Origin: Bacilli bacterium
GTDB taxonomy: Bacteria; Bacillota_I; Bacilli_A; RF39; UBA660
DNA length: 64,000 nucleotides
Reading direction: 5' to 3'
Assembly (NCBI GenBank): GCA_028694645.1
Contig: JAQVKM010000004.1
Location: 79,365-143,364, forward strand
The notes beneath the pieces were generated by a model. It saw only the letters and a list, made by a program, of their open reading frames with translations, ran no database searches and had not been told where the DNA came from. Position 1 is the stretch's first letter, and each line of letters begins with the position of its first letter. Below, piece after piece: positions 1,246 through 33,453 of the stretch. The position numbers and the translations under genes were made by a program.

Positions 1246-3741
1246 ATGAAATTTTTTACTAAAATATTTGATCATGAATATAAAGAATTAGAAAAATTTA
1301 AAAAAATAGCAGATCAAGTAATGGAATTAGAATCAGTAATTGCAAAATTAACTGATCAAGAATTAAAAGAAAAAACAGAAGAATTTAGAAATAGATTAAA
1401 AAATGGGGAAACATTAGAAGATATCAAAGTAGAAGCTTTTGCCGTAGCTAGAGAAGCAGCTTATCGCGTAATAGGAGAAAAACCGTATTATGTTCAAATA
1501 TTAGGTGGACTTGCGATTCACTATGGTAATATAGCTGAAATGAAAACAGGTGAAGGAAAAACTTTGACTGCAACCATGCCAGCTTATTTAAATTCTTTAA
1601 CTGGACTTGGAGTTCATATAATAACAGTAAATGAGTATCTTGCTGGAAGAGATGCTTCTTGGATGGGAGAAATTTATCGTTTTTTAGGATTAACAGTTGG
1701 AATTAATTATAGAGAAAACACTCATAGCGAAAAAAGATTAGCATATGAATGTGATATCATGTATACAACAAATAACGAATTAGGATTTGATTATTTAAGA
1801 GATAACATGGTTGTTAAAGCAGCAGATAGAGTTCAAAGAAAATTAAACTTTGTTATAATTGATGAGGTTGATTCAGTTTTAATTGATGAAGCAAGAACAC
1901 CGCTTATTATATCAGGAGGACATGTTGAATCAGCTAATCTATATTTAGAAGCAGATCGTTTTGCTAAATCATTAAAAGAAAATGATGGATATATATATGA
2001 TGAAAAAACAAAATCTGTAACCTTAGATGATAAAGGAATTAAAGAAGGAGAAAAATTCTTTAAATTAAACAATCTATATGATATAAATAACACTAATTTA
2101 GTACATTATATTAATCAAGCTTTAAAAGCAAATTATGCTATGAAAGCCGATGTTGATTATGTAGTACAAGATAATAAAATAGTTATTGTTGATCAATTTA
2201 CTGGGCGTTTAATGGCAGGAAGAAATTTCTCAGAAGGATTACATCAAGCTATTGAAGCTAAAGAAGAAGTAACAATTCAAAGAGAAACTAAAACTTTAGC
2301 AACAATAACATTCCAAAATTTATTTAGAATGTATAATAAATTATCAGGTATGACAGGAACTGCAAAAACAGAAGAAGAAGAATTTAGAGAAATATATAAT
2401 ATGTATGTTATACAAATTCCTACAAACAAACCTGTTATTAGAAGTGACTATGGAGATTTAGTATTTGCTACTAAAAAAGGTAAATATAAAGCTATAGTTG
2501 AAGAAATAAAAGAAAAACATGCTAAAGGACAACCAGTATTAGTAGGTACTATAGCTGTTGAAACAAGTGAATTAATAAGTTCCTTGTTAAAAAAAGAACA
2601 CATTCCACATGAAGTATTGAATGCTAAAAATAATGCTAGAGAAGCAGAAATTATAGCTAAAGCTGGTGATAAAGGTGCAGTAACAATTGCAACAAACATG
2701 GCTGGACGTGGAACAGATATTAAGCTAACAGATGAAATTAAAGCTCTTGGAGGGCTTTGCGTTATTGGGACTGAAAGACATGAATCAAGACGTATTGATA
2801 ATCAATTAAGAGGACGTTCAGGTCGTCAAGGAGATCCAGGTTATTCACAATTCTGTGTATCATTTGAAGATGAATTAATGGTTCGTTTTGGAACAGATAG
2901 AGCTAAATCTTTATTAGCAAGAGCTGGATTTGGAGAAGACGCTTCAATTAGAGTTGGAATGTTGACTAAATCAATTGAATCAGCACAAAAAAGAGTTGAA
3001 GGTAATAATTTTGATATTCGTAAAACTTTATTACAATATGATGATGTTATTAATAATCAAAGAGAATATATTTATGATATTAGAAATCAAATATTAGATT
3101 CTGATTCAATTCATGAAAAAGTATTAGAAAATATGAATAACTTTATTAAACAATTAGTTGATAGTCATATTATGCCAGAAGGATATTTAACAGATAATGA
3201 TTTATCTGAGATAATTGAATTTACAAATGAAAATTTACTTAGAAAAAATCAACTAAGAATTGAGCAAATTAACAATAAATCTTCAGAAGAAGTTTCTCAA
3301 ATTATTTTTGAAATAGTAGTTGAGGAGTATAATGAAAAATTAAGTCAAATTCCTCAAGAAATAGCTAATGAATTTGAAAAAGCTATAACATTAAGAGTGA
3401 TTGATACACATTGGATGAATCACATTAATACAATGTCTCATTTAAGAGAAGGTATTGGACTTAGAAGTTATGCACAAGAAAATCCTCTTCGTGCCTATAC
3501 TACTGAAGGATTTCAATTATATGATGATTTATTAAATACAATTGATAAAGAAGTTACAATTTATTTGGTTAAATCTGAAATAAGACAAAATATTGAAAGA
3601 AAACAAGTAATAAAAGGAGAAGCTGTTATAGATAGTAATAAAACAAAAAAAGCATCACCTAAGAAAGTAGAAAAAGTAGGAAGAAATGAATTGTGTCCAT
3701 GTGGCTCAGGGAAAAAATATAAACAATGTTGTGGTAAATAA
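1246..3741 (+). CDS. secA: preprotein translocase ATPase SecA
   Basis: 831 aa with Walker A MKTGEGKT, DEVD helicase box and a C-terminal zinc finger CPCGSGKKYKQCCGK. Confidence 0.95.
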   Translation: MKFFTKIFDHEYKELEKFKKIADQVMELESVIAKLTDQELKEKTEEFRNRLKNGETLEDIKVEAFAVAREAAYRVIGEKPYYVQILGGLAIHYGNIAEMKTGEGKTLTATMPAYLNSLTGLGVHIITVNEYLAGRDASWMGEIYRFLGLTVGINYRENTHSEKRLAYECDIMYTTNNELGFDYLRDNMVVKAADRVQRKLNFVIIDEVDSVLIDEARTPLIISGGHVESANLYLEADRFAKSLKENDGYIYDEKTKSVTLDDKGIKEGEKFFKLNNLYDINNTNLVHYINQALKANYAMKADVDYVVQDNKIVIVDQFTGRLMAGRNFSEGLHQAIEAKEEVTIQRETKTLATITFQNLFRMYNKLSGMTGTAKTEEEEFREIYNMYVIQIPTNKPVIRSDYGDLVFATKKGKYKAIVEEIKEKHAKGQPVLVGTIAVETSELISSLLKKEHIPHEVLNAKNNAREAEIIAKAGDKGAVTIATNMAGRGTDIKLTDEIKALGGLCVIGTERHESRRIDNQLRGRSGRQGDPGYSQFCVSFEDELMVRFGTDRAKSLLARAGFGEDASIRVGMLTKSIESAQKRVEGNNFDIRKTLLQYDDVINNQREYIYDIRNQILDSDSIHEKVLENMNNFIKQLVDSHIMPEGYLTDNDLSEIIEFTNENLLRKNQLRIEQINNKSSEEVSQIIFEIVVEEYNEKLSQIPQEIANEFEKAITLRVIDTHWMNHINTMSHLREGIGLRSYAQENPLRAYTTEGFQLYDDLLNTIDKEVTIYLVKSEIRQNIERKQVIKGEAVIDSNKTKKASPKKVEKVGRNELCPCGSGKKYKQCCGK

Positions 3742-3786
3742 CTCGCAAACTCCGATAAAATAAGGGGAAACGCGAGTTTTTCTTTT
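3699..3786 (+). repeat. 88-bp direct repeat copy 1 (secA last 13 codons plus terminator)
   Basis: Identical base-for-base to 4641..4728. Confidence 0.9.
3741..3786 (+). terminator. putative secA terminator (short stem ACTCGC..GCGAGT plus T-run)
   Basis: Inverted repeat followed by TTTTTCTTTT. The stem is short with a long loop. Confidence 0.4.
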
Positions 3787-3893
3787 TATCAAAAAATAGC
3801 TCAAAATAAGAGCTAGAGCCACTTTAGATACCTTTTTCCGTTATTTTTGAAAGATAAAAAATATGATATAATTATTTATAGGAGTTGATAATA

Positions 3894-4472
3894 ATGAAAA
3901 TGGAAACAGAAATTACTGTATTAGTTAAGAGTACTTATAATGACCTAAAAAAGGAATTAGAAAAGAATGGCTTTCAAATAAAGGAGGAATATGAATTAAG
4001 GGATGACTATATGATTAATAATGATATTGACTTATCAAAATTATCAAAATTAGAAATTCTTCAAAATTGTATTCTGGTTAGAGATATAGTTAATATAAAA
4101 AAAGAATTACTTTATAAATATAAAAAGTATGCTTCTAATGGAGATATATTAGAACAAGGTAAAGTAGAATGTCCTGTTACGGATATTGATAAAGCTGTCA
4201 AATTTATGGAATCAATAAATTATAAAAAAATATTTAATATATATGATAAATGCATAGTGTTTGCAAATAGAGAAACTGAGCTAGTAGTACAATTAGTAAA
4301 TAATAAATATATTTTTATAGAAATGGAATCTGAATGTGAACATATAGATAGAAAATATGAATCTGCTGAAGAATTAAAGAAAGATTTAAATAGGTATAAT
4401 TTACCAATTGATAATTCCAATTATTTTGTAAAAAAAGCTGAATTAATATTAAGTGAAACATTAAAAATATAG
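3894..4472 (+). CDS. CYTH-like (class IV adenylyl cyclase / triphosphate tunnel) domain protein, putative
   Basis: ~190 aa. N-terminal ETEITVLV resembles the CYTH EIERKFLV strand. AGGAG RBS 9 nt upstream. Lies between the two 88-bp repeats. Confidence 0.4.
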   Translation: MKMETEITVLVKSTYNDLKKELEKNGFQIKEEYELRDDYMINNDIDLSKLSKLEILQNCILVRDIVNIKKELLYKYKKYASNGDILEQGKVECPVTDIDKAVKFMESINYKKIFNIYDKCIVFANRETELVVQLVNNKYIFIEMESECEHIDRKYESAEELKKDLNRYNLPIDNSNYFVKKAELILSETLKI

Positions 4473-4640
4473 TCTTTGCTAAAAAATTTCGAAAAAGTAT
4501 TAAAAGAGTATTTTAGATACCTTTTTAGATACCTTCTGGTCAAACTCTGGGGTGCTGTCGGAAGCTACCAAGTGCATTCAATAGCCCAAAAGAGCTACAA
4601 AATACTCTCAAGAACTCCCAAAAACCCCAAATTACAAGCT

Positions 4641-19215: not shown

Positions 19216-19292
19216 GGGCGATTAGCTCAGTTGGTTAGAGCACCTGCCTTACAAGCAGGGGGTCATAGGTTCGAGTCCTATATCGCCCACCA
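19216..19292 (+). tRNA. tRNA-Val(TAC)
   Basis: Cloverleaf with anticodon loop CTTACAA. CCA is encoded. Confidence 0.9.
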
Positions 19293-19296
19293 TTTT

Positions 19297-19372
<76 letters not shown>

Positions 19373-19379
19373 TTATTTT

Positions 19380-19463
19380 GGAAGGGTAGCGAAGAGGTTA
19401 AACGCGGCAGACTGTAAATCTGTTCCTTCGGGTTCGATGGTTCGAATCCATCTCCTTCCACCA
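19380..19463 (+). tRNA. tRNA-Tyr(GTA)
   Basis: Anticodon loop CTGTAAA. Long variable arm. CCA end. Confidence 0.9.
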
Positions 19464-19475
19464 TAATTTTTTTAT

Positions 19476-19551
19476 TGCCTCGTAGCCAAGTGGTAAGGCA
19501 CCACACTTTGACTGTGGCATTTCGCTAGTTCGAATCTAGCCGAGGCAGCCA
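19476..19551 (+). tRNA. tRNA-Gln(TTG)
   Basis: Anticodon loop CTTTGAC. CCA end. Confidence 0.85.
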
Positions 19552-19576
19552 TTTTGAAATATTTAAATAATAATAT

Positions 19577-19652
19577 GTCTCGTTAGCTCAGCCGGTAGAG
19601 CATCTGACTTTTAATCAGAGGGTCGTGAGTTCGAATCTCGCACGAGACACCA
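19577..19652 (+). tRNA. tRNA-Lys(TTT)
   Basis: Anticodon loop CTTTTAA. CCA end. Confidence 0.9.
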
Positions 19653-19655
19653 GAT

Positions 19656-19744
19656 GCCTGAGTGGCGAAATTGGTAGACGCACAGGACTTAAAATCCTGC
19701 GAGAGTCAAATCTCGTGCCGGTTCAAGTCCGGCCTTAGGCACCA
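19656..19744 (+). tRNA. tRNA-Leu(TAA)
   Basis: Anticodon loop CTTAAAA. Long variable arm. CCA end. Confidence 0.9.
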
Positions 19745-19756
19745 ATATGAATATAA

Positions 19757-19778
19757 TCGAACAAATATGTTCGGTTTT
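19757..19778 (+). terminator. terminator after first tRNA block
   Basis: CGAACAaatatgTTCG stem followed by GTTTT. Confidence 0.5.
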
Positions 19779-19832
19779 ATTTTGTTAATTTTAATAATGA
19801 ATAAAAAAAATATAAAAAATTAATAAAATCTA

Positions 19833-19861
19833 TTGAAAATATATAAAATAACTGATATAAT
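19833..19861 (+). promoter_or_regulatory. promoter TTGAAA-17-TATAAT (extended TGn) for second tRNA block
   Basis: Consensus hexamers ~45 nt upstream of tRNA-Ser. Confidence 0.55.
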
Positions 19862-19908
19862 CATATACGTACTCGTAAATCTTTATATTTTCGAGATTAC
19901 AATTATAT

Positions 19909-19997
19909 GGAGAAATACCCAAGTGGTTGAAGGGTCCGGTCTTGAAAACCGGTAGGTCGGAAACGGCGCTAGGGTTCGAATCCCTATTTCTCCGCCA
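19909..19997 (+). tRNA. tRNA-Ser(TGA)
   Basis: Anticodon loop CTTGAAA. Long variable arm. CCA end. Confidence 0.9.
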
Positions 19998-20005
19998 TCT
20001 AATAT

Positions 20006-20082
<77 letters not shown>

Positions 20083-20085
20083 AAT

Positions 20086-20161
20086 GGTCCCGTAGTGTAG
20101 CGGTTATCACGTCTGCCTGTCACGCAGAAGATCGCGAGTTCGATTCTCGTCGGGACCGCCA
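20086..20161 (+). tRNA. tRNA-Asp(GTC)
   Basis: Anticodon loop CTGTCAC. CCA end. Confidence 0.9.
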
Positions 20162-20170
20162 TTTATTTTT

Positions 20171-20246
20171 GGCTCTGTAGCTCAGTCGGTAGAGCAAGGG
20201 ACTGAAAATCCCTGTGTCGATGGTTCGATTCCATTCGGAGCCACCA
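20171..20246 (+). tRNA. tRNA-Phe(GAA)
   Basis: Anticodon loop CTGAAAA. CCA end. Confidence 0.9.
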
Positions 20247-20357
20247 TTTTATAAGAAAAGAACAATAAGTTCACTAAAAATATATTAAATAAGATTCCAA
20301 TAATGATTGTTGGTTTTTTTATTAAAAAAAATAAATTTAGAAAATTTTAAAAAAATA

Positions 20358-20386
20358 TTGCTAAAACAATAATATTGTGGTAATAT
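20358..20386 (+). promoter_or_regulatory. promoter TTGCTA-17-TAATAT with extended TG for tRNA-Arg/Pro
   Basis: Hexamers at the correct spacing ~40 nt upstream of tRNA-Arg. Confidence 0.5.
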
Positions 20387-20426
20387 TATACTTGTATTTG
20401 TTGAGTTTTCTCAACAATAAAGTATC

Positions 20427-20503
20427 GCGCTCGTAGCTCAGCTGGATAGAGTGTTTGGCTACGAACCAAAAGGTCAGGGGTTCGAATCCCTTCGAGCGCA
20501 CCA
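20427..20503 (+). tRNA. tRNA-Arg(ACG)
   Basis: Anticodon loop CTACGAA. CCA end. Confidence 0.9.
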
Positions 20504-20514
20504 TAATAATTTTT

Positions 20515-20591
20515 CGGGATGTGGCTCAACTTGGTAGAGCACTTGGTTTGGGACCAAGGGGTTGCAGGTTCAAATCCTGTCATCCCGACCA
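20515..20591 (+). tRNA. tRNA-Pro(TGG)
   Basis: Anticodon loop TTTGGGA. CCA end. Confidence 0.9.
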
Positions 20592-20601
20592 TTTAAAATT
20601 T

Positions 20602-20627
20602 AACTCTTATAAAATAAGAGTTTTTTG
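20602..20627 (+). terminator. rho-independent terminator after tRNA-Pro
   Basis: ACTCTTATaaaaATAAGAGT stem followed by T6. Confidence 0.7.
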
Positions 20628-20797: not shown

Positions 20798-20823
20798 ATT
20801 ATTATTATTATTATTATTATTAT
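20798..20823. repeat. (ATT)8 trinucleotide microsatellite
   Basis: Perfect ATT x8 in an otherwise ORF-free intergenic region. Confidence 0.9.
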
Positions 20824-20937: not shown

Positions 20938-21414
20938 ATGATTAATATGACATATGACGAAGACGAGTTTTTACTTACCACTGAAGACAATGAATTTTTA
21001 ATAAAGAGAATAATTGAAATAGTTGATTTAAATAAACAAAGTGATGACTGTGTAACAATATTTTGTCATTACATTGATTGTAACATTGAAATATATTATG
21101 ATGGGTATATTTTAGATGGGTATATTTTCTTTATTGAAATTTGTAATCATAAGCAACCGTTATTAAAAAGATGCGTGAAATTTGCAAATAAATCTGAGAT
21201 GATAGCCTTAGCAGTTTTAATTTATGATAAATTTAAAGAAAATTTTGGAGAAGCTGGTTTTAGTTACAGAGATGATTCAATTGGCAGATGTTTTGCTTCT
21301 GGAAGTGTAAATTTTGATTTAGAAAAAGGTACTGGAATAAACTATGTTTGTTATGGAATAGATTATTGTGAATTTGTTAAAACAAATACAAAAGTTAAAT
21401 ATTTTATCAAATAA
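20938..21414 (+). CDS. hypothetical Cys-containing protein (upstream partner of radical SAM gene)
   Basis: AAAGGA RBS before the ATG at 20938 (the ORF track extends to 20884). ~158 aa with 8 Cys. No recognisable domain. Confidence 0.5.
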   Translation: MINMTYDEDEFLLTTEDNEFLIKRIIEIVDLNKQSDDCVTIFCHYIDCNIEIYYDGYILDGYIFFIEICNHKQPLLKRCVKFANKSEMIALAVLIYDKFKENFGEAGFSYRDDSIGRCFASGSVNFDLEKGTGINYVCYGIDYCEFVKTNTKVKYFIK

Positions 21415-21434
21415 ATATTACATATGGAGGATAT

Positions 21435-22268
21435 ATGAATAAAGAAATAATTAGTATATGCTATGAATTGAATAAAGAATGTAATCTTAAATGTGATTAC
21501 TGTATTACAAGTGATAATGAAAATAAACAAGTAGATTATAAATTAATTATAAAATATATTGTATCTTTAAATCCTAAGCGAATAGTAATATCTGGGGGTG
21601 AACCATTTCTTGATCCAGATTTAATAAAAAAATTAACAATTATTAGAAATTTATGTCCAGATACTTATATTTCATTGAGTACAAATGGGACAATAGATTA
21701 TAATTATAAATTAATAGCAAATATTGTAGATTGTGTTGATGTTAGTATACCAAGTTTATGCTCAGAAACTTACAAATTAATGAGAGGTAAAAATTTAATA
21801 TTAAATGTAAAACAAAATCTAGAAAAATTAAAAACAAATAGTTTTGATTTAAGATTAAGTTTTATGTTAACAAAAGTTAATAAACACGAGGTTCTAGATT
21901 TTTTAGATTATGCTAAAAATTTAGGAGTAGAAGAAGTTAGGATTGGAAGATATTTTCCTTTTCGTGGCGGAAATAAAAATTCAGCTAAATATGAGTTAAC
22001 ATCAGAAGAGATAGATGAAGTTATAAGTAATATTGATATTAAATTATATCCATTTAAAATAGTTTTCCCAATAGGTAATTTACAAATAATGAGTGATAGT
22101 TATCTTACTATTAACCATTTAGGTCAAGTTTCAACGCCTAAAAATGATGGAAAAAATATATTACTTAATTTAGATGAGAATATTTCATTCGATTCAAATT
22201 TAGATATAGGAAATCAAAGTGATATTTTTAAAAAAGTAAAGCTTAAAGAAAATAAGCAAAATAAATAA
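21435..22268 (+). CDS. radical SAM protein (single CxxxCxxC cluster, no SPASM extension)
   Basis: CNLKCDYC at residues 16-23 and ISGGEPFL at 53-60. 277 aa. Confidence 0.8.
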   Translation: MNKEIISICYELNKECNLKCDYCITSDNENKQVDYKLIIKYIVSLNPKRIVISGGEPFLDPDLIKKLTIIRNLCPDTYISLSTNGTIDYNYKLIANIVDCVDVSIPSLCSETYKLMRGKNLILNVKQNLEKLKTNSFDLRLSFMLTKVNKHEVLDFLDYAKNLGVEEVRIGRYFPFRGGNKNSAKYELTSEEIDEVISNIDIKLYPFKIVFPIGNLQIMSDSYLTINHLGQVSTPKNDGKNILLNLDENISFDSNLDIGNQSDIFKKVKLKENKQNK

Positions 22269-22413
22269 TAATTCAATAAAATATTATAAAAACATTATAT
22301 ACTTTTAAGGCTAGTATATAATGTTTTTTTGTTAATTGTCTAAACTCAACTAATAGTTTGTTGCTTTTTTAATTTAGTTAATTATATAATTATGATAATA
22401 GGAGGAAAAAAAT

Positions 22414-23328
22414 ATGGATTATCAAAAGATAGGAACATTAATTTCAAATTTACGAAAAGAAAAAGGATTCACCCAAAAAGAATTAGCAGATAAATTAGGA
22501 ATAACAGATCGTGCGGTTTCAAAGTGGGAAAGGGGACATGGATGTCCAGATGTCTCATTATTAGATGATTTATCAAGAATATTAGATATTTCTATAATTG
22601 AAATATTAAAAGGCAGAAAATTAGATACAGATGAATTAGTAAATAATAAAGATTTGATTGAATCAATGAATTATTCTAAAGAAAGTTTTAAAAACAGAAT
22701 AAGAAAATATGTTAATATAGCTGCAATATTTATAATAATATTTATAATATTGTCTCAAATATTTTATATGGCAAAAAGTTTTTATTATCTTAATATAAAA
22801 TATCCTAAAAGTTTTGATAGTGAGCAAATTCTAAATCAAGTAGAAGAATTTAATAAAAACATTAGTATAATTAAAGCAAATCAAGGTATTTTTAATGATG
22901 AAGAATATAATAAAATTTTAGATTATATATCAAAATTAGAAAAGAGAGAAAATCTTGAAAATAATGATTTTTATATTAATAAAACAAAATTTTCATATTT
23001 AGAAATAATTGAATTTTATCGTTTACATGATATAGGCATTAATTATACTTATTATTTTTATCAATCTGAATTTGATGATTCAATTTATGCCATTTTAAGT
23101 AAACATGATATTAGCAAAATACCAAATATAATTGATTATTATAATCGCTTCAATCAATTGCGCTCTGGTTATGAATTGCTTTTTGAACAAATAACAGTTC
23201 CATATTATAATAATAAAACTATACAATACTATTTTATGGATAGTATGTATATGTCAATTTTTTATGAATATTATAATGATAATATTTTGTTAAATGACAT
23301 AATAGAAGTTGGTGGTATAAGTGAATAA
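22414..23328 (+). CDS. XRE-family HTH transcriptional regulator with transmembrane segment and C-terminal domain
   Basis: N-term LISNLRKEKGFTQKELADKLGITDRAVSKWERG is a Cro/C1 HTH. A hydrophobic segment IAAIFIIIFIILSQIF follows. Confidence 0.75.
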   Translation: MDYQKIGTLISNLRKEKGFTQKELADKLGITDRAVSKWERGHGCPDVSLLDDLSRILDISIIEILKGRKLDTDELVNNKDLIESMNYSKESFKNRIRKYVNIAAIFIIIFIILSQIFYMAKSFYYLNIKYPKSFDSEQILNQVEEFNKNISIIKANQGIFNDEEYNKILDYISKLEKRENLENNDFYINKTKFSYLEIIEFYRLHDIGINYTYYFYQSEFDDSIYAILSKHDISKIPNIIDYYNRFNQLRSGYELLFEQITVPYYNNKTIQYYFMDSMYMSIFYEYYNDNILLNDIIEVGGISE

Positions 23329-23914
23329 ACGAGGAATATTAAAATTTGTCTTATTATTATTTTCCTCATTTGCAACTTTTAAATTTCTTATGAATGCAGA
23401 TGAAACAGGTTTTATAACTGTAAATGGGCACTTGTTATTTATTGGATTTGTTGTTGCTGGGACTATATTTATGTATTGTAAAAAGAATAAAATAAAGAAA
23501 TTTAAATTTGTATATGATGTTGTATTAATGTTAATGATGTTATTTGTTGGTTTATTCATTGCATACTTTATATATGCAAATATAGTTACCTTTTTTAATC
23601 CATCATATGAAATGGAATTTAATATATTTTTAATCGAAATATATCCAGTAATACTTTGGTTAATAATTTTATTTAGCATTGAAGATATTTTTAAAAAAAC
23701 CAATAAAACTAATGATTATTTAACAATTGCAATTTCAATTACAATAATAATATTAATTTTAAGATATTATATTGATCCAACAATGCCTCATAATGTTGAA
23801 AGTACAAGCTTATTTTCTAGTTGTGCTTACGAATATATGATACAAAATTTACCTTCCTTTATAATCATGTATATATTACTTTTAATTCACCATGCAATTA
23901 ACAAAGAAAAATAA
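23321..23914 (+). CDS. polytopic membrane protein, hypothetical
   Basis: Overlaps the previous gene by 8 nt. 5-6 hydrophobic helices. Confidence 0.5.
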   Translation: MNKRGILKFVLLLFSSFATFKFLMNADETGFITVNGHLLFIGFVVAGTIFMYCKKNKIKKFKFVYDVVLMLMMLFVGLFIAYFIYANIVTFFNPSYEMEFNIFLIEIYPVILWLIILFSIEDIFKKTNKTNDYLTIAISITIIILILRYYIDPTMPHNVESTSLFSSCAYEYMIQNLPSFIIMYILLLIHHAINKEK

Positions 23915-29468: not shown

Positions 29469-30404
29469 ATGAAAAAGAACAAAATATTTAAAACGTTAGA
29501 TGAACAAATTGAAATATTAAAATCTAAAGGATTAATAATAGAAGATGTAATTGAAACAAAAGAAATTTTATTTAGAGAAAATTACTTTTTTATAAGTGGA
29601 TATAGACATTTATTTATGCAATCTTATAATGATACACATTTTATAAGAGGAACAACGTTTGATGAATTATATGCAACTTTTCTATTTGATCGAAATATAA
29701 GAAATATTATATTTAAATATTTATTAACAGTAGAAAATAATATTAAATCAATATTAAGTTATCAAATGTCAAAGCAATATGGATATAGAGAAAAAGAATA
29801 TTTAAATCCAAAAAATTTCACACAAGATAATATTAAAGTAAGGCAAGTATATGATGTTTTAAATAAAATGCGTAGACAAATAAGAGTAAATGGGCGTCAA
29901 CATACAGCAACTAGTCATTATTTAAATAATTATGGATATATTCCAATGTGGATTTTAGTTAAAGTTTTATCATTTGGTATAATCTCTGAGTTATATAATA
30001 TTTTAAAGGTAGAAGATCAAATGAATATATCAGAATATTATAATTTGGATTCAGAATCACTGGGCATATATTTATCTTTGCTATCTAATTTTAGAAACTT
30101 ATGTGCACATGAAGATATTTTATATGATCATAGAACACAAAGAGGAATTCCAGATACAAAATATCATTATAAATTAAATATAGAAATGACTGATGATGAA
30201 TATAATTATGGGAAAAATGATTTATATGCTGTTATAATAATTCTTAAACAAATGTTAACTGAAGAAGAGTTTAGAGGGCTAACTTTTGAAATTGGATATG
30301 AAATAGATGTTCTAGATGGTAGAGTTGATACAGTTAAATTAAATTTAATATTAAATAAAATAGGATTTCCAAGCAATTGGAGAGATATTGAAGATATTGA
30401 TTAA
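29469..30404 (+). CDS. Abi_2-family abortive-infection protein (AbiD/AbiF-like)
   Basis: N-term KTLDEQIEILKSKGLIIED, NYFFISGYRHLF and mid-protein YIPMWILVKVLSFG match the Abi-like family pattern. 311 aa. Confidence 0.65.
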   Translation: MKKNKIFKTLDEQIEILKSKGLIIEDVIETKEILFRENYFFISGYRHLFMQSYNDTHFIRGTTFDELYATFLFDRNIRNIIFKYLLTVENNIKSILSYQMSKQYGYREKEYLNPKNFTQDNIKVRQVYDVLNKMRRQIRVNGRQHTATSHYLNNYGYIPMWILVKVLSFGIISELYNILKVEDQMNISEYYNLDSESLGIYLSLLSNFRNLCAHEDILYDHRTQRGIPDTKYHYKLNIEMTDDEYNYGKNDLYAVIIILKQMLTEEEFRGLTFEIGYEIDVLDGRVDTVKLNLILNKIGFPSNWRDIEDID

Positions 30405-30517: not shown

Positions 30518-32743
30518 ATGAAAGAATGGAATGAATTTGCTTGTGGGAATTGGTGTCATAAAATAGATGTAAGAGATTTCATCAATAAAAATTATACTTT
30601 ATATTTGGGAGATGATTCTTTTTTAGAATCAATATCAAATAAAACAAAAAATGTTTGGAATAAATGTAGTGAGCTTTTAAAAGAGGAATTGAAACATCAA
30701 GTCTTAGATATTGATGTAAATCATATTTCAGGAATTAATTCTTTTGAACCTGGATATATAGATAAAAATAATGAAGTGATTGTCGGTTTACAAACGGATA
30801 AACCATTAAAAAGAATGATTAATCCATATGGTGGAATGAGAATGGTAGAAAGTTCTTTAAAAGCATATAATTATAAATTAAATCCAGAAATAGAAAAATA
30901 TTTTAATCAATTTAGAAAAACTCATAATGATGGAGTTTTTGATGTATATACACCACAGATTAAATTGGCTCGCAAAGTTGGTTTATTAACAGGGCTTCCA
31001 GATGCTTATGGTAGAGGAAGAATAATTGGTGACTATAGAAGAGTTGCTTTATATGGTATTGATTATTTGATAAAATCTAAAGAAGAAGATTATGATAATC
31101 TTACAGGACCTATGATAGAAGATACTATAAGATTAAGAGAAGAAGTAATGACTCAAATTAGAGCATTAAATGAAATGAAAGAAATGGCTTTAAAATATGG
31201 TTATGATATTTCTAAACCAGCGTCTAATGCAAAAGAAGCAGTACAATGGTTATATTTTGGTTATTTAGCTGCAGTTAAAGAAAATAATGGTGCTGCTATG
31301 AGTTTAGGAAGAGTTGATTCATTTTTAGATATTTATATTGAAAGAGACATTAAAAATAATGTATTAAATGAAAAAGAAGCACAAGAACTTATAGACCAAT
31401 TTATAATTAAACTTAGATTAGTTAGACATTTAAGAACTCCTGATTATGATGAATTGTTCTCAGGAGATCCTACTTGGGTAACTTGTTCTTTAGGTGGTAT
31501 TAATTTGGATAATAAACCACTAGTTACTAAAAGTTCGTATAGAATTTTACATACACTAACTAATCTAGAACCAGCTCCAGAACCAAATATGACTGTTTTA
31601 TGGAGTAAAAATTTACCAGAGAATTATAAAAATTATTGTGCTAAAATGTCTATTGAAACAGATGCAATTCAATATGAAAATGATGATGTTATGAGACCAA
31701 TATATGAAGATGATTACGCTATTGCTTGTTGTGTTTCAGCTATGAAACTCGGAAAACAAATGCAATTTTTTGGAGCTAGAACTAATTTAGCTAAAGCATT
31801 ATTGTATTCTATTAATGGTGGAATAGATGAAATTGAAAATATTAAAGTAATTGATAATTTTGAAATAATGACAGATGATGTTTTGGATTATGATAAAGTT
31901 AAAACTCAATATTTCAAAATGCTAGAAAAAGTAGCAGAAATATATGCAAATACAATGAATATTATTCATTATATGCATGATAAATATGCTTATGAGGCTG
32001 GGCAATTAGCACTTCATGATACTTATGTTGAAAGATTAGTAGCTTATGGAGTAGCTGGTATTTCTGTAGTTGCAGATTCATTATCAGCTATAAAATATGC
32101 TAAAGTAAAACCAATTAGGAATGAAAATGGAATAGCTGTTGATTTTGAGATAGAAGGAGATTTTCCTAAATTTGGAAATGATAATGATGAAGTAGATCTT
32201 ATAGCTAAAGAAGTTTTAGAAAAAATGAATTTAGAATTATCTAAGCATGAAACATATCGAAATGCAATACCAACATTATCTGTATTAACGATAACTTCAA
32301 ATGTTGTTTATGGCGCTAAAACAGGATCAACTCCAGATGGAAGAAAAAAAGGAATTCCTTTTGCTCCTGGAGCAAATCCAATGCATGGAAGAGATACTAG
32401 TGGAGCATTAGCGTCTTTAAATTCTGTAGCAAAATTTAATTATGCTAGCTGCTGTAGAGATGGAATATCAAATACCTTTTCAATTGTTCCATCAACATTA
32501 GGTCATGATAAAAAAACACAAATTGAAAATCTAGTTTCGGTTTTAGACGGATATTTTATTCAAAAGGCACATCATTTGAATGTTAATGTTTTAACAAAAG
32601 AAATACTTATTGATGCAATGAATAATCCTGAGGCATATCCACTACTTACAATAAGAGTGTCTGGATATGCTGTACGCTTTAACAGATTAACAAAAAAACA
32701 ACAAGAAGAAGTTATATCTAGAACTTTTCATGGAAAAATGTAA
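30518..32743 (+). CDS. pflB: formate C-acetyltransferase (pyruvate formate-lyase)
   Basis: 741 aa. Glycyl-radical motif RVSGYAV near the C-terminus. Active-site CC. Confidence 0.95.
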
Positions 32744-33453
32744 TGACAAAAGGTAGTGTAGATTCAATTGAATCATTTGGATTAATAGATGGCCCAGGAA
32801 TAAGAATGGTTGTTTTTCTTAATGGATGTAAATTAAGATGTAGATATTGTCATAATCCAGAAATGTGGTTAAAAAAAGAAGACAATTATTTGCCAGAGGA
32901 TATATTAAAAAAAGCTATTAAATTAAAACCATATTTTAAAAAAAATAATGGTGGAGTTACTTTTTCAGGAGGAGAACCACTACTTCAAAGTCAATTTCTT
33001 TTAGAAACATGTAAATTACTTAAAAAAGAACAAATTAATATTACATTAGATACAGCGGGTGTCGGTAATGACTATGATGAACTACTTGATTATATTGATT
33101 TAGTACTATTTGACATCAAAGCTGTAAAGCCAGATGAATATAAAAAAATAACTAATTATGATATACAAAAGTCACTTGAATTTCTAAATAAATGTCAAGA
33201 AAAAAACAAAAAGTTATGGATTAGACAGGTTATTGTACCAGGTATTAATGACAATGAAGAAAGTATATATGAATTAAATAAATTTATAAAAACAATTAAA
33301 AATGTTAAAAAGATAGAATTATTACCATATCATACAATGGCAATAAATAAATATGAAAAATTAAATATTGAATATCCGTTATCTGGTGTTCCAGATATGG
33401 ATATTGATAAATGTAAACAATTAGAAGAAATAATAACAAAAAAGATATCTTAA
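32743..33453 (+). CDS. pflA: pyruvate formate-lyase activating enzyme (radical SAM)
   Basis: GCKLRCRYCHN CxxxCxxC motif. Translationally coupled to pflB. Confidence 0.9.
   Translation: MTKGSVDSIESFGLIDGPGIRMVVFLNGCKLRCRYCHNPEMWLKKEDNYLPEDILKKAIKLKPYFKKNNGGVTFSGGEPLLQSQFLLETCKLLKKEQINITLDTAGVGNDYDELLDYIDLVLFDIKAVKPDEYKKITNYDIQKSLEFLNKCQEKNKKLWIRQVIVPGINDNEESIYELNKFIKTIKNVKKIELLPYHTMAINKYEKLNIEYPLSGVPDMDIDKCKQLEEIITKKIS

Follow-up and report, generated by a model that had tools for sequence, protein, structure and literature searches.

A compact radical SAM gene of a rare, viperin-like family and its unrelated neighbors in a Bacilli genome

Four genes in three units

We analyzed a 64,000-nucleotide (nt) stretch of the genome of a Bacilli bacterium (RF39, UBA660; GenBank assembly GCA_028694645.1, contig JAQVKM010000004.1, positions 79,365 to 143,364 of the forward strand), referred to below as the window, in which a preliminary description had singled out four adjacent genes as one cluster containing a compact radical S-adenosylmethionine (SAM) enzyme. 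All four open reading frames (ORFs) are present on the plus strand as described: gene A (20938-21414), which follows a AGAAAGGA ribosome-binding site and encodes a protein of 158 amino acids (aa); gene B (21435-22268), encoding the 277-aa radical SAM (rSAM) protein MDD3453359.1; gene C (22414-23328), encoding a 304-aa XRE-type regulator with a transmembrane (TM) segment; and gene D (23321-23914), a 197-aa membrane protein with a GTG start. These genes are not a four-gene module but three unrelated units, namely A, the rSAM, and a C-D pair.

Genes A and B lie 20 nt apart on the same strand with no terminator in between, and B has a good ribosome-binding site. A is probably co-transcribed with the rSAM here, yet this would come without a functional tie between the two. 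The A-B transcription unit ends at an AT-rich intrinsic terminator hairpin 3' of B (22288-22331, plus strand), which comprises 16 base pairs and a T-run. In RNA folding this hairpin has a free energy of −14.8 kcal/mol and a z-score of −4.43, and 0 of 200 shuffled sequences were equally stable. It was overlooked by a consensus terminator scan, which demands at least three G-C pairs; the window has a G+C content of about 24%.

Genes C and D overlap by 8 nt. We reject a single four-gene operon because of the strong terminator between B and C together with the independent conservation of C-D, a pair that recurs without A or B. The proposed linkage is also kept in no relative: among the loci examined, neither A nor C-D stands beside B in any of them, a homolog of A occurs in 0 of about 25 loci of the rSAM family, and these loci hold no homolog of C or D. 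Gene-neighborhood conservation, which the preliminary description had named as a check, thus separates A, the rSAM, and C-D from one another, and the corrected annotation for the window is three independent units, neither a four-gene module nor a peptide-modification system.

The C-D pair

Gene C belongs to the XRE family, with an HTH_3 match of 59.8 bits against a Pfam gathering cut-off of 23. It has one predicted TM segment at about residues 102-120 and a C-terminal domain of about 180 aa without a family match. Gene D has about 5 predicted TM segments, and none of its 14 homologs carries a Pfam domain. Two other loci (here and below, L numbers designate loci of relatives), L140 and L141, encode an HTH_3 protein of about 300 aa upstream of a D homolog with the same 8-nt overlap and with no rSAM or A nearby. 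L141 holds two tandem paralogous pairs (749-2294 and 3109-4594), each with this overlap. C and D, a membrane-anchored regulator with its membrane-protein partner, are an independent conserved pair, and the recurrence of this pair in L140 and L141 without the rSAM takes both genes out of the proposed cluster. The two would constitute a separate signal-transduction pair. They resemble membrane-anchored XRE regulators in the N-terminal HTH_3 domain, the single TM segment, the extracytoplasmic domain, and the translational coupling to a small polytopic membrane protein, but the C-terminal domain of C and its partner D match no described family.

Gene A, an orphan upstream of the rSAM

The product of gene A (MDD3453358.1, locus tag PHN42_03725) had been called Cys-rich and uncharacterized, and both terms fit. 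It is predicted to be soluble, and has 8 Cys residues (5.1%) with no CxxC pair; searches of Pfam, NCBIfam, PADLOC, and PHROGs gave no family match. Only two homologs were found among 5.8 billion clusters; these start at the second Met of A (20947), and 5 of the Cys are conserved in both. In L011 the homolog is followed by genes for Fic, a 226-aa protein, and TetR, without an rSAM. In L012 the 140 nt 3' of the homolog hold no rSAM start, and an rSAM homolog from the same sample lies on a different contig, behind a small HD protein. The AlphaFold2 (AF2) model of A is weak, with a predicted local distance difference test score (pLDDT) of 65 and no informative structural match. The fold it predicts is an alpha/beta domain and not a leader-core peptide.

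Could A and the rSAM nevertheless be a functional pair, with the enzyme modifying A or a peptide in a pathway of protein maturation or one resembling that of ribosomally synthesized and post-translationally modified peptides (RiPPs)? The 20-nt spacing on one strand, the lack of a terminator in between, the good ribosome-binding site of B, and the 5 conserved Cys would all suit such a pair. We nonetheless regard it as very improbable, given that neither of the only two loci with an A homolog has a following rSAM, that no other family locus encodes A, that the rSAM has no SPASM, twitch, or RiPP recognition element (RRE) domain, and that A itself is a 158-aa predicted alpha/beta domain. Because both homologs are unlinked to the rSAM and no family locus has A, gene A is an orphan and neither a conserved partner nor a likely substrate of the enzyme. 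This disfavors the earlier suggestion that the upstream protein might be the substrate, its homologs sitting beside Fic and TetR or on an rSAM-free contig, and with it the option of a peptide-modification system. A as a protein or peptide substrate was rejected on the same grounds.

A rare radical SAM family outside the curated subfamilies

The rSAM protein carries the motifs CNLKCDYC (residues 16-23), ISGGEPFL, and STNGT, and its only Cys residues are at positions 9, 16, 20, 23, 74, 100, and 109. Its Pfam matches are Radical_SAM and Fer4_12 only; the Pfam scan found no SPASM (PF13186) or twitch domain, and there is no Cys after position 109. The enzyme is compact and lacks a glycyl-radical partner, as had been noted, with pflB (30518-32743) and the adjoining pflA (32743-33453) elsewhere in the window, about 9 kb from the rSAM. 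A role as glycyl-radical activase was rejected on this basis, the true pflA being the one next to pflB. A SPASM/twitch RiPP maturase was likewise rejected, as there is no such domain, no C-terminal Cys, and no co-conservation of A.

Comparison with curated profiles placed the rSAM in no housekeeping subfamily. Among NCBIfam models, it scores 65-75 bits with MoaA (cut-offs 231-325; the best model gives 75 against 325), 64 bits with the tungsten-cofactor maturase (cut-off 380), 56.7 bits with viperin (NF038283; cut-off 180), 39 bits with QueE (cut-off 260), and 33 bits with NrdG (NrdG2; cut-off 131). The PADLOC models for pVip, the prokaryotic viperins, give 62-64 bits, and 61-66 bits for one of the fused relatives described below. 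MoaA, QueE, NrdG, PflA, and TatD-linked rSAM were all discarded as assignments, with scores below the curated cut-offs. The preliminary description had proposed a profile search against pVip, QueE, NrdG, and PflA-like subfamilies, with a confident housekeeping assignment, the other genes being unlinked in relatives, as the outcome that would speak against it, and no such assignment emerged.

The family around this enzyme is small. Seventeen clusters among the 5.8 billion match at E <1e-27, the next matches being 411-426-aa rSAM/SPASM proteins with at most 77 bits, and a profile search of 1.84 billion representatives returned 35 proteins at E ≤1e-30. Family members occur in about 10 of 185,579 species genomes, mostly from uncultured gut Bacilli with a few Clostridia, and at 10 metagenome loci. 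None was found in IMG/VR, where the best match is 28% identical, and a phage origin was rejected on that account. The rSAM is a member of a very rare, uncharacterized family closest to viperin. In the literature on viperin or radical SAM enzymes in connection with dGTPases, triphosphohydrolases, nucleotidyltransferases, HD domains, or anti-phage defense, no description of the family or of its fusion was found, within a coverage that is incomplete and leaves novelty unproven.

A second tier of 290-300-aa rSAM proteins (120-170 bits; P0045-P0063) likewise falls below every curated cut-off. One of these relatives, a Bacteroidales protein with 30% identity, is flanked in L021 (7022-9738) by a GT2 glycosyltransferase on one side and a 322-aa protein on the other, and the gene ends overlap. 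This context hints at a different substrate for this sister group, perhaps a sugar nucleotide.

Predicted fold and active site

The AF2 model of the rSAM, built from a 17-sequence alignment, has a pLDDT of 90.2 and a predicted template-modeling score (pTM) of 0.89. Its top 16 Foldseek matches are all viperins or viperin-like proteins, with template-modeling (TM) scores of 0.71-0.75, and it has the partial (beta-alpha)6 barrel of viperin, closed by a C-terminal extension and without an auxiliary cluster. When the family profile is compared with the Protein Data Bank (PDB), the alignment spans viperin chain residues 30-300, including the C-terminal extension. The predicted [4Fe-4S] ligands are C16, C20, and C23. 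Further family-invariant residues are C9, Y10, R49, K66, R117, R140, R169, and Y223, while S142 and C100 are nearly invariant. The window protein keeps all 32 family-invariant residues, among them the cluster Cys and the GGEP SAM motif.

The active-site residues of viperin (PDB 6Q2P, mouse numbering) we take to be the beta1 N-Y-H, K120, K220, N222, R245/K247, and Y302 in "SYL". Part of this set is supported by the reported lining of the mouse viperin pocket by S124, K220, N222, and K247 (PMC11970327). In the profile alignment, family R49 pairs with viperin K120, R140 with K220, S142 with N222, and Y223 in "gYLtIN" with Y302 in "DSYLILD". The register of viperin R245/K247, opposite R169/R172 of the rSAM, was assigned from strand position only.

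The rSAM thus shares with viperin and pVip a single rSAM domain about 280 aa long that carries GGEP and, near its N terminus, a CX3CX2C motif, the partial barrel and the extension that closes it, an alignment that reaches the "SYL" Tyr, and basic residues that align with K120 and K220. In the window it is a single gene, like many pVips, and its relatives have partners in nucleotide metabolism, a Dgt domain and a nucleotidyltransferase (NTase) in the rSAM family and kinases in the case of pVips. There are differences as well. Identity to viperin is only about 17-19% and the profile score 57 bits where the cut-off is 180, the beta1 NYH of viperin is an invariant C9-Y10-E11 in the rSAM family, a further Cys, C100, is nearly invariant, and a CCA/poly(A)-polymerase-type NTase with a fused Dgt deoxynucleoside triphosphate (dNTP) hydrolase is not among the reported pVip partners. 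A study of viperin evolution defined viperins by hidden Markov model, with MoaA as the outgroup (10.1101/2023.09.13.557418), and as judged with the NCBIfam model the rSAM falls outside such a definition. It is viperin-like in its predicted fold and not a viperin by the sequence criterion of that family.

By sequence profile, MoaA is the best match, both in the comparison with solved structures (56 bits) and within NCBIfam (75 bits). MoaA acts on a nucleoside triphosphate (NTP), and the rSAM core and "TNG" strand are alike. However, the alignment with the rSAM extends only to about residue 178, an enzyme that has no Cys after 109 lacks the C-terminal auxiliary [4Fe-4S] cluster of three Cys with which MoaA binds GTP, the score does not come near the cut-offs of 231-325, and no molybdenum cofactor genes lie nearby. 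The resemblance to MoaA and viperin-like enzymes pointed out in the preliminary description was therefore well placed, the closest relatives by sequence and fold being MoaA and, above all, viperin.

Nucleotidyltransferase and Dgt partners in relatives

The neighborhoods of family members fall into two types. The first is found in Clostridia, one spirochaete-like contig, and several metagenome contigs. At 12 loci of relatives, a Pol-beta NTase of 222-266 aa is encoded directly upstream of the rSAM, its end overlapping or abutting the rSAM start. It carries the motif FGGxVRD...RDxDxV and a PolyA_pol head match of 26.9 bits against a cut-off of 23; no solved homolog was found, the best match being poly(A) polymerase at E 0.55. 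At 8 loci (L014, L144-L149, and L222) a single ORF of about 780-800 aa encodes the rSAM together with a Dgt-type HD domain, and at L005, L007, and L008 the rSAM is followed by a separate Dgt-type HD protein, internally deleted in L007. The NTase and a fused or neighboring Dgt-type HD domain were counted together at 12 loci. The alignment of the fused HD domain with Escherichia coli Dgt is full-length (216 bits); the domain also scores 196-210 bits with the PADLOC dGTPase model and keeps the RLTHSLEV and HDLGNPPFGH motifs. The invariant rSAM residues are all common to fused and stand-alone forms.

The C-terminal half of these fused relatives, though not the window gene, thus resembles Dgt-family dNTPases and anti-phage dGTPase, with motifs kept. 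The known defense dGTPases are stand-alone, whereas here the domain is fused to or placed behind a viperin-like rSAM with an NTase upstream, and the window rSAM gene has lost, or never had, the Dgt domain. The NTase and rSAM-Dgt genes of L008 (4117-9099) and L149 (2065-7047) belong to a cassette of 4983 nt that is 99.98% identical between the two and includes a gene for a 367-aa protein. Their left flanks differ, with phage tail (tape-measure) genes in one case and guaA in the other, and the one mismatch, CAA in L149 and TAA in L008, divides the rSAM-Dgt fusion of L008 in two.

L222 (6512-15491) and L005 (4204-10747) share a longer series of genes, encoding the NTase, the fused or split rSAM and Dgt, a 127/128-aa protein, an 842/850-aa HD protein, and a 674/694-aa protein with HD and CYTH domains. 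In L222, DDE transposases and a RelB/ParE pair border this series.

The second type of neighborhood is that of low-GC Bacilli, the window included, in which the rSAM is a stand-alone gene, preceded in every genome by a different neighbor: A, GNAT-YoaP, a 671-aa unknown, a small HD protein, GNAT, a Panacea antitoxin, DUF3800, ylxM, or pyruvate:ferredoxin oxidoreductase (PFOR). The window gene is thus a member of the rSAM family without the multi-gene NTase and Dgt system. A GNAT acetyltransferase lies directly upstream of the stand-alone rSAM in two Bacilli subclades (L001 4246-4986 and L016 2346-2816), one of them YoaP-like in its C-terminal part. In L009 (4642-9750) and L151 (3975-7097), an rSAM homolog and an 808-aa DUF87 (HerA-like) ATPase lie between ylxM and ffh. 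The homologs downstream of DUF3800 in two rabbit-gut Bacilli metagenome-assembled genomes (L019 7992-8432 and L020 2326-2766) are only 146 aa long, which suggests that they are pseudogenes. A thymidylate synthase near the rSAM in L001 and L003 scores above the ThyA cut-off and has no counterpart in the window; a link was rejected, and the adjacency is probably chance.

A neighbor-joining (NJ) tree, which carries no support values, intersperses stand-alone with fused forms, an arrangement that we regard as tentative. It would agree with the stand-alone rSAM being a decaying, functionless remnant of an NTase and rSAM-Dgt system, as would the ease with which one nonsense mutation splits the fusion (L008 versus L149), the internal deletion of the HD part in L007, and the 146-aa copies of L019 and L020. 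We nonetheless consider such a remnant improbable for the window. Its ORF is full length, all 32 family-invariant residues are kept, including the cluster Cys and GGEP, and no HD remnant lies downstream. Moreover, several Bacilli genomes have kept stand-alone forms over a range of 37-74% identity and at a syntenic site, and this persistence argues for purifying selection.

History of the locus

The left edge of the variable spot in which the rSAM lies is marked by a tRNA-Pro gene (20515-20591, plus strand; identified with ARAGORN), the last of a 12-tRNA array, with its terminator hairpin (20602-20626, plus strand) directly 3'. A block of about 55 nt consisting of the last 20 nt of this tRNA-Pro and the terminator (window 20572-20626) recurs at three sites that lack the remainder of the tRNA. 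In L006 (3529-3583) it lies 7 nt past the stop codon of the rSAM, in L001 (6543-6581) it comes behind the rSAM and a gene for a 225-aa protein, and in L012 (994-1073) it precedes the A homolog by about 145 nt. These blocks look like att-type scars left by integration into tRNA-Pro, and the spot downstream of tRNA-Pro like a recombination hotspot. The gene orders around them cannot be derived from one simple insertion. The window holds no second copy of the tRNA-Pro 3' 20-mer, and an island delimited by a second tRNA-Pro 3' end was rejected for that reason. Other family members are found in mobile or defense-like settings, with AbiEi/AbiEii, with a Panacea antitoxin and DUF3800, with RelB/ParE and transposases, or with a serine recombinase and a tRNA.

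Part of the neighborhood is shared with a distant relative. In the window and in L018, a gene for a 299-aa protein, NifU, an S1-domain gene, and a tRNA array precede the rSAM in the same order, and the two rSAMs are about 37% identical. The first 10 of the window's 12 tRNA genes (19216-20591) are ordered as in the 10-tRNA array of L018 (5786-6636), which is without the final Arg and Pro genes. L015 has PFOR upstream of its rSAM, as does the window.

Such synteny would be expected if the rSAM were a non-immune metabolic enzyme of the Bacilli lineage of the window, inherited vertically at a fixed chromosomal site, for example in nucleotide salvage, cofactor synthesis, or nucleoside modification, with the Dgt and NTase partners of its relatives then part of a biosynthetic or salvage pathway. 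The shared gene order with L018 despite about 37% identity, the common PFOR, the absence of family members from IMG/VR, and the fact that the best sequence match (56 bits by PDB profile, 75 in NCBIfam) is the cofactor enzyme MoaA all point in this direction. Against it stand the rarity of the family, with members in about 10 of 185,579 species genomes, which argues against a core function, and immediate neighbors that change in every genome and are often toxin-antitoxin (TA), abortive-infection (Abi), or mobile genes. The truncated copies of L019 and L020, a nonsense-split copy within a cassette found in two contexts, and the absence of the MoaA C-terminal auxiliary-cluster Cys also fit poorly with this alternative. 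On balance we regard a metabolic role of this kind as rather unlikely.

Proposed function of the rSAM

Few immune enzymes are common to animals, archaea, and bacteria; viperin is one of them, and the nucleotides that it makes are antiviral leads. The best overall explanation of the locus, which we consider about evenly balanced between right and wrong, is that of three units in which the rSAM is a stand-alone viperin-like enzyme modifying NTPs at a variable, tRNA-linked spot. The strongest clue to a nucleoside triphosphate as the substrate of the family is its fusion to a dNTP-acting enzyme together with the adjacent NTase. The conserved Arg residues that align with triphosphate-binding positions of viperin and MoaA agree with an NTP substrate, which is thus suggested by the Dgt fusion and by conserved basic residues. 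By analogy with viperin, and with moderate confidence, the reaction would be a radical modification of the NTP ribose.

In such a mechanism, the rSAM would bind a nucleoside triphosphate in a closed (beta-alpha)6 barrel of the viperin type. The [4Fe-4S] cluster held by C16, C20, and C23 would, with SAM, generate a 5'-deoxyadenosyl radical that abstracts a hydrogen from the ribose. The product would be a modified nucleotide, made either by the 3'-deoxy-3',4'-didehydro (ddh) chemistry of viperin or by a variant using the invariant C9, Y10, and Y223, and it could serve as an antimetabolite or chain terminator in defense.

A defense role itself is possible, though on the doubtful side. We counted in its favor the Abi, TA, and mobile neighbors of the family, its extreme patchiness, and the mobility of the cassette. 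The reading of the preliminary description as a small-molecule-modification or defense unit accordingly remains plausible for the rSAM alone, with an NTP as the favored small molecule, and does not hold for a four-gene cluster. A more far-reaching reading, which we consider less likely than not, is a new viperin-like branch of immunity, in which the NTase and the viperin-like rSAM-Dgt would make, process, or install a radical-modified nucleotide that blocks phage replication or translation, for example at RNA or tRNA 3' ends, and in which the lineage of the window would keep a minimal single-gene version that still makes the modified nucleotide.

Several observations weigh against a viperin-like, NTP-modifying defense enzyme. 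The viperin score is far below the cut-off (57 against 180 bits), and the change from NYH to CYE means that the chemistry may differ from that of viperin. The substrate assignment draws on relatives that are 42-49% identical to the window rSAM, and tblastn searches with the NTase and HD proteins found no homolog of either in the 64-kb window. A fused triphosphohydrolase would destroy a ddhNTP-type product. The syntenic site in L018 looks like long vertical inheritance and not like a fast-moving defense gene, and the family is absent from IMG/VR.

The earlier remarks on the rSAM as compact, MoaA- and viperin-like, and outside the housekeeping groups thus led to the part of the locus that is of most interest. 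The family sets itself apart by a Cys-Tyr-Glu signature in place of Asn-Tyr-His and by the genes with which its relatives are associated, for a dNTP triphosphohydrolase and a nucleotidyltransferase. Another family with the shape of viperin would offer new radical nucleotide chemistry, possibly including new chain terminators or antimetabolites, and the Dgt fusion provides a directly testable substrate hypothesis for an otherwise unannotated enzyme.

Surroundings of the locus in the window

Upstream, the neighbors of the four ORFs are PFOR, a thioredoxin-reductase-like gene, the 299-aa unknown, NifU, the S1-domain gene, and the 12-tRNA array. Downstream lie desulfoferrodoxin, DUF5661, DUF1003, and rplM/rpsI, followed by an amidase, an Abi_2 gene, and pflB/pflA. 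With Rfam, no riboswitch or leader RNA came up 5' of A, B, or C at E values up to 1, nor any other element in the region. An (ATT)8 microsatellite is located between the tRNA array and gene A, at about 20800-20823. The Abi_2 gene (29469-30404; AbiD/F-like abortive infection, 140.7 bits) stands directly upstream of pflB/pflA and is preceded by two unannotated genes and one for an N-acetylmuramoyl-L-alanine amidase.

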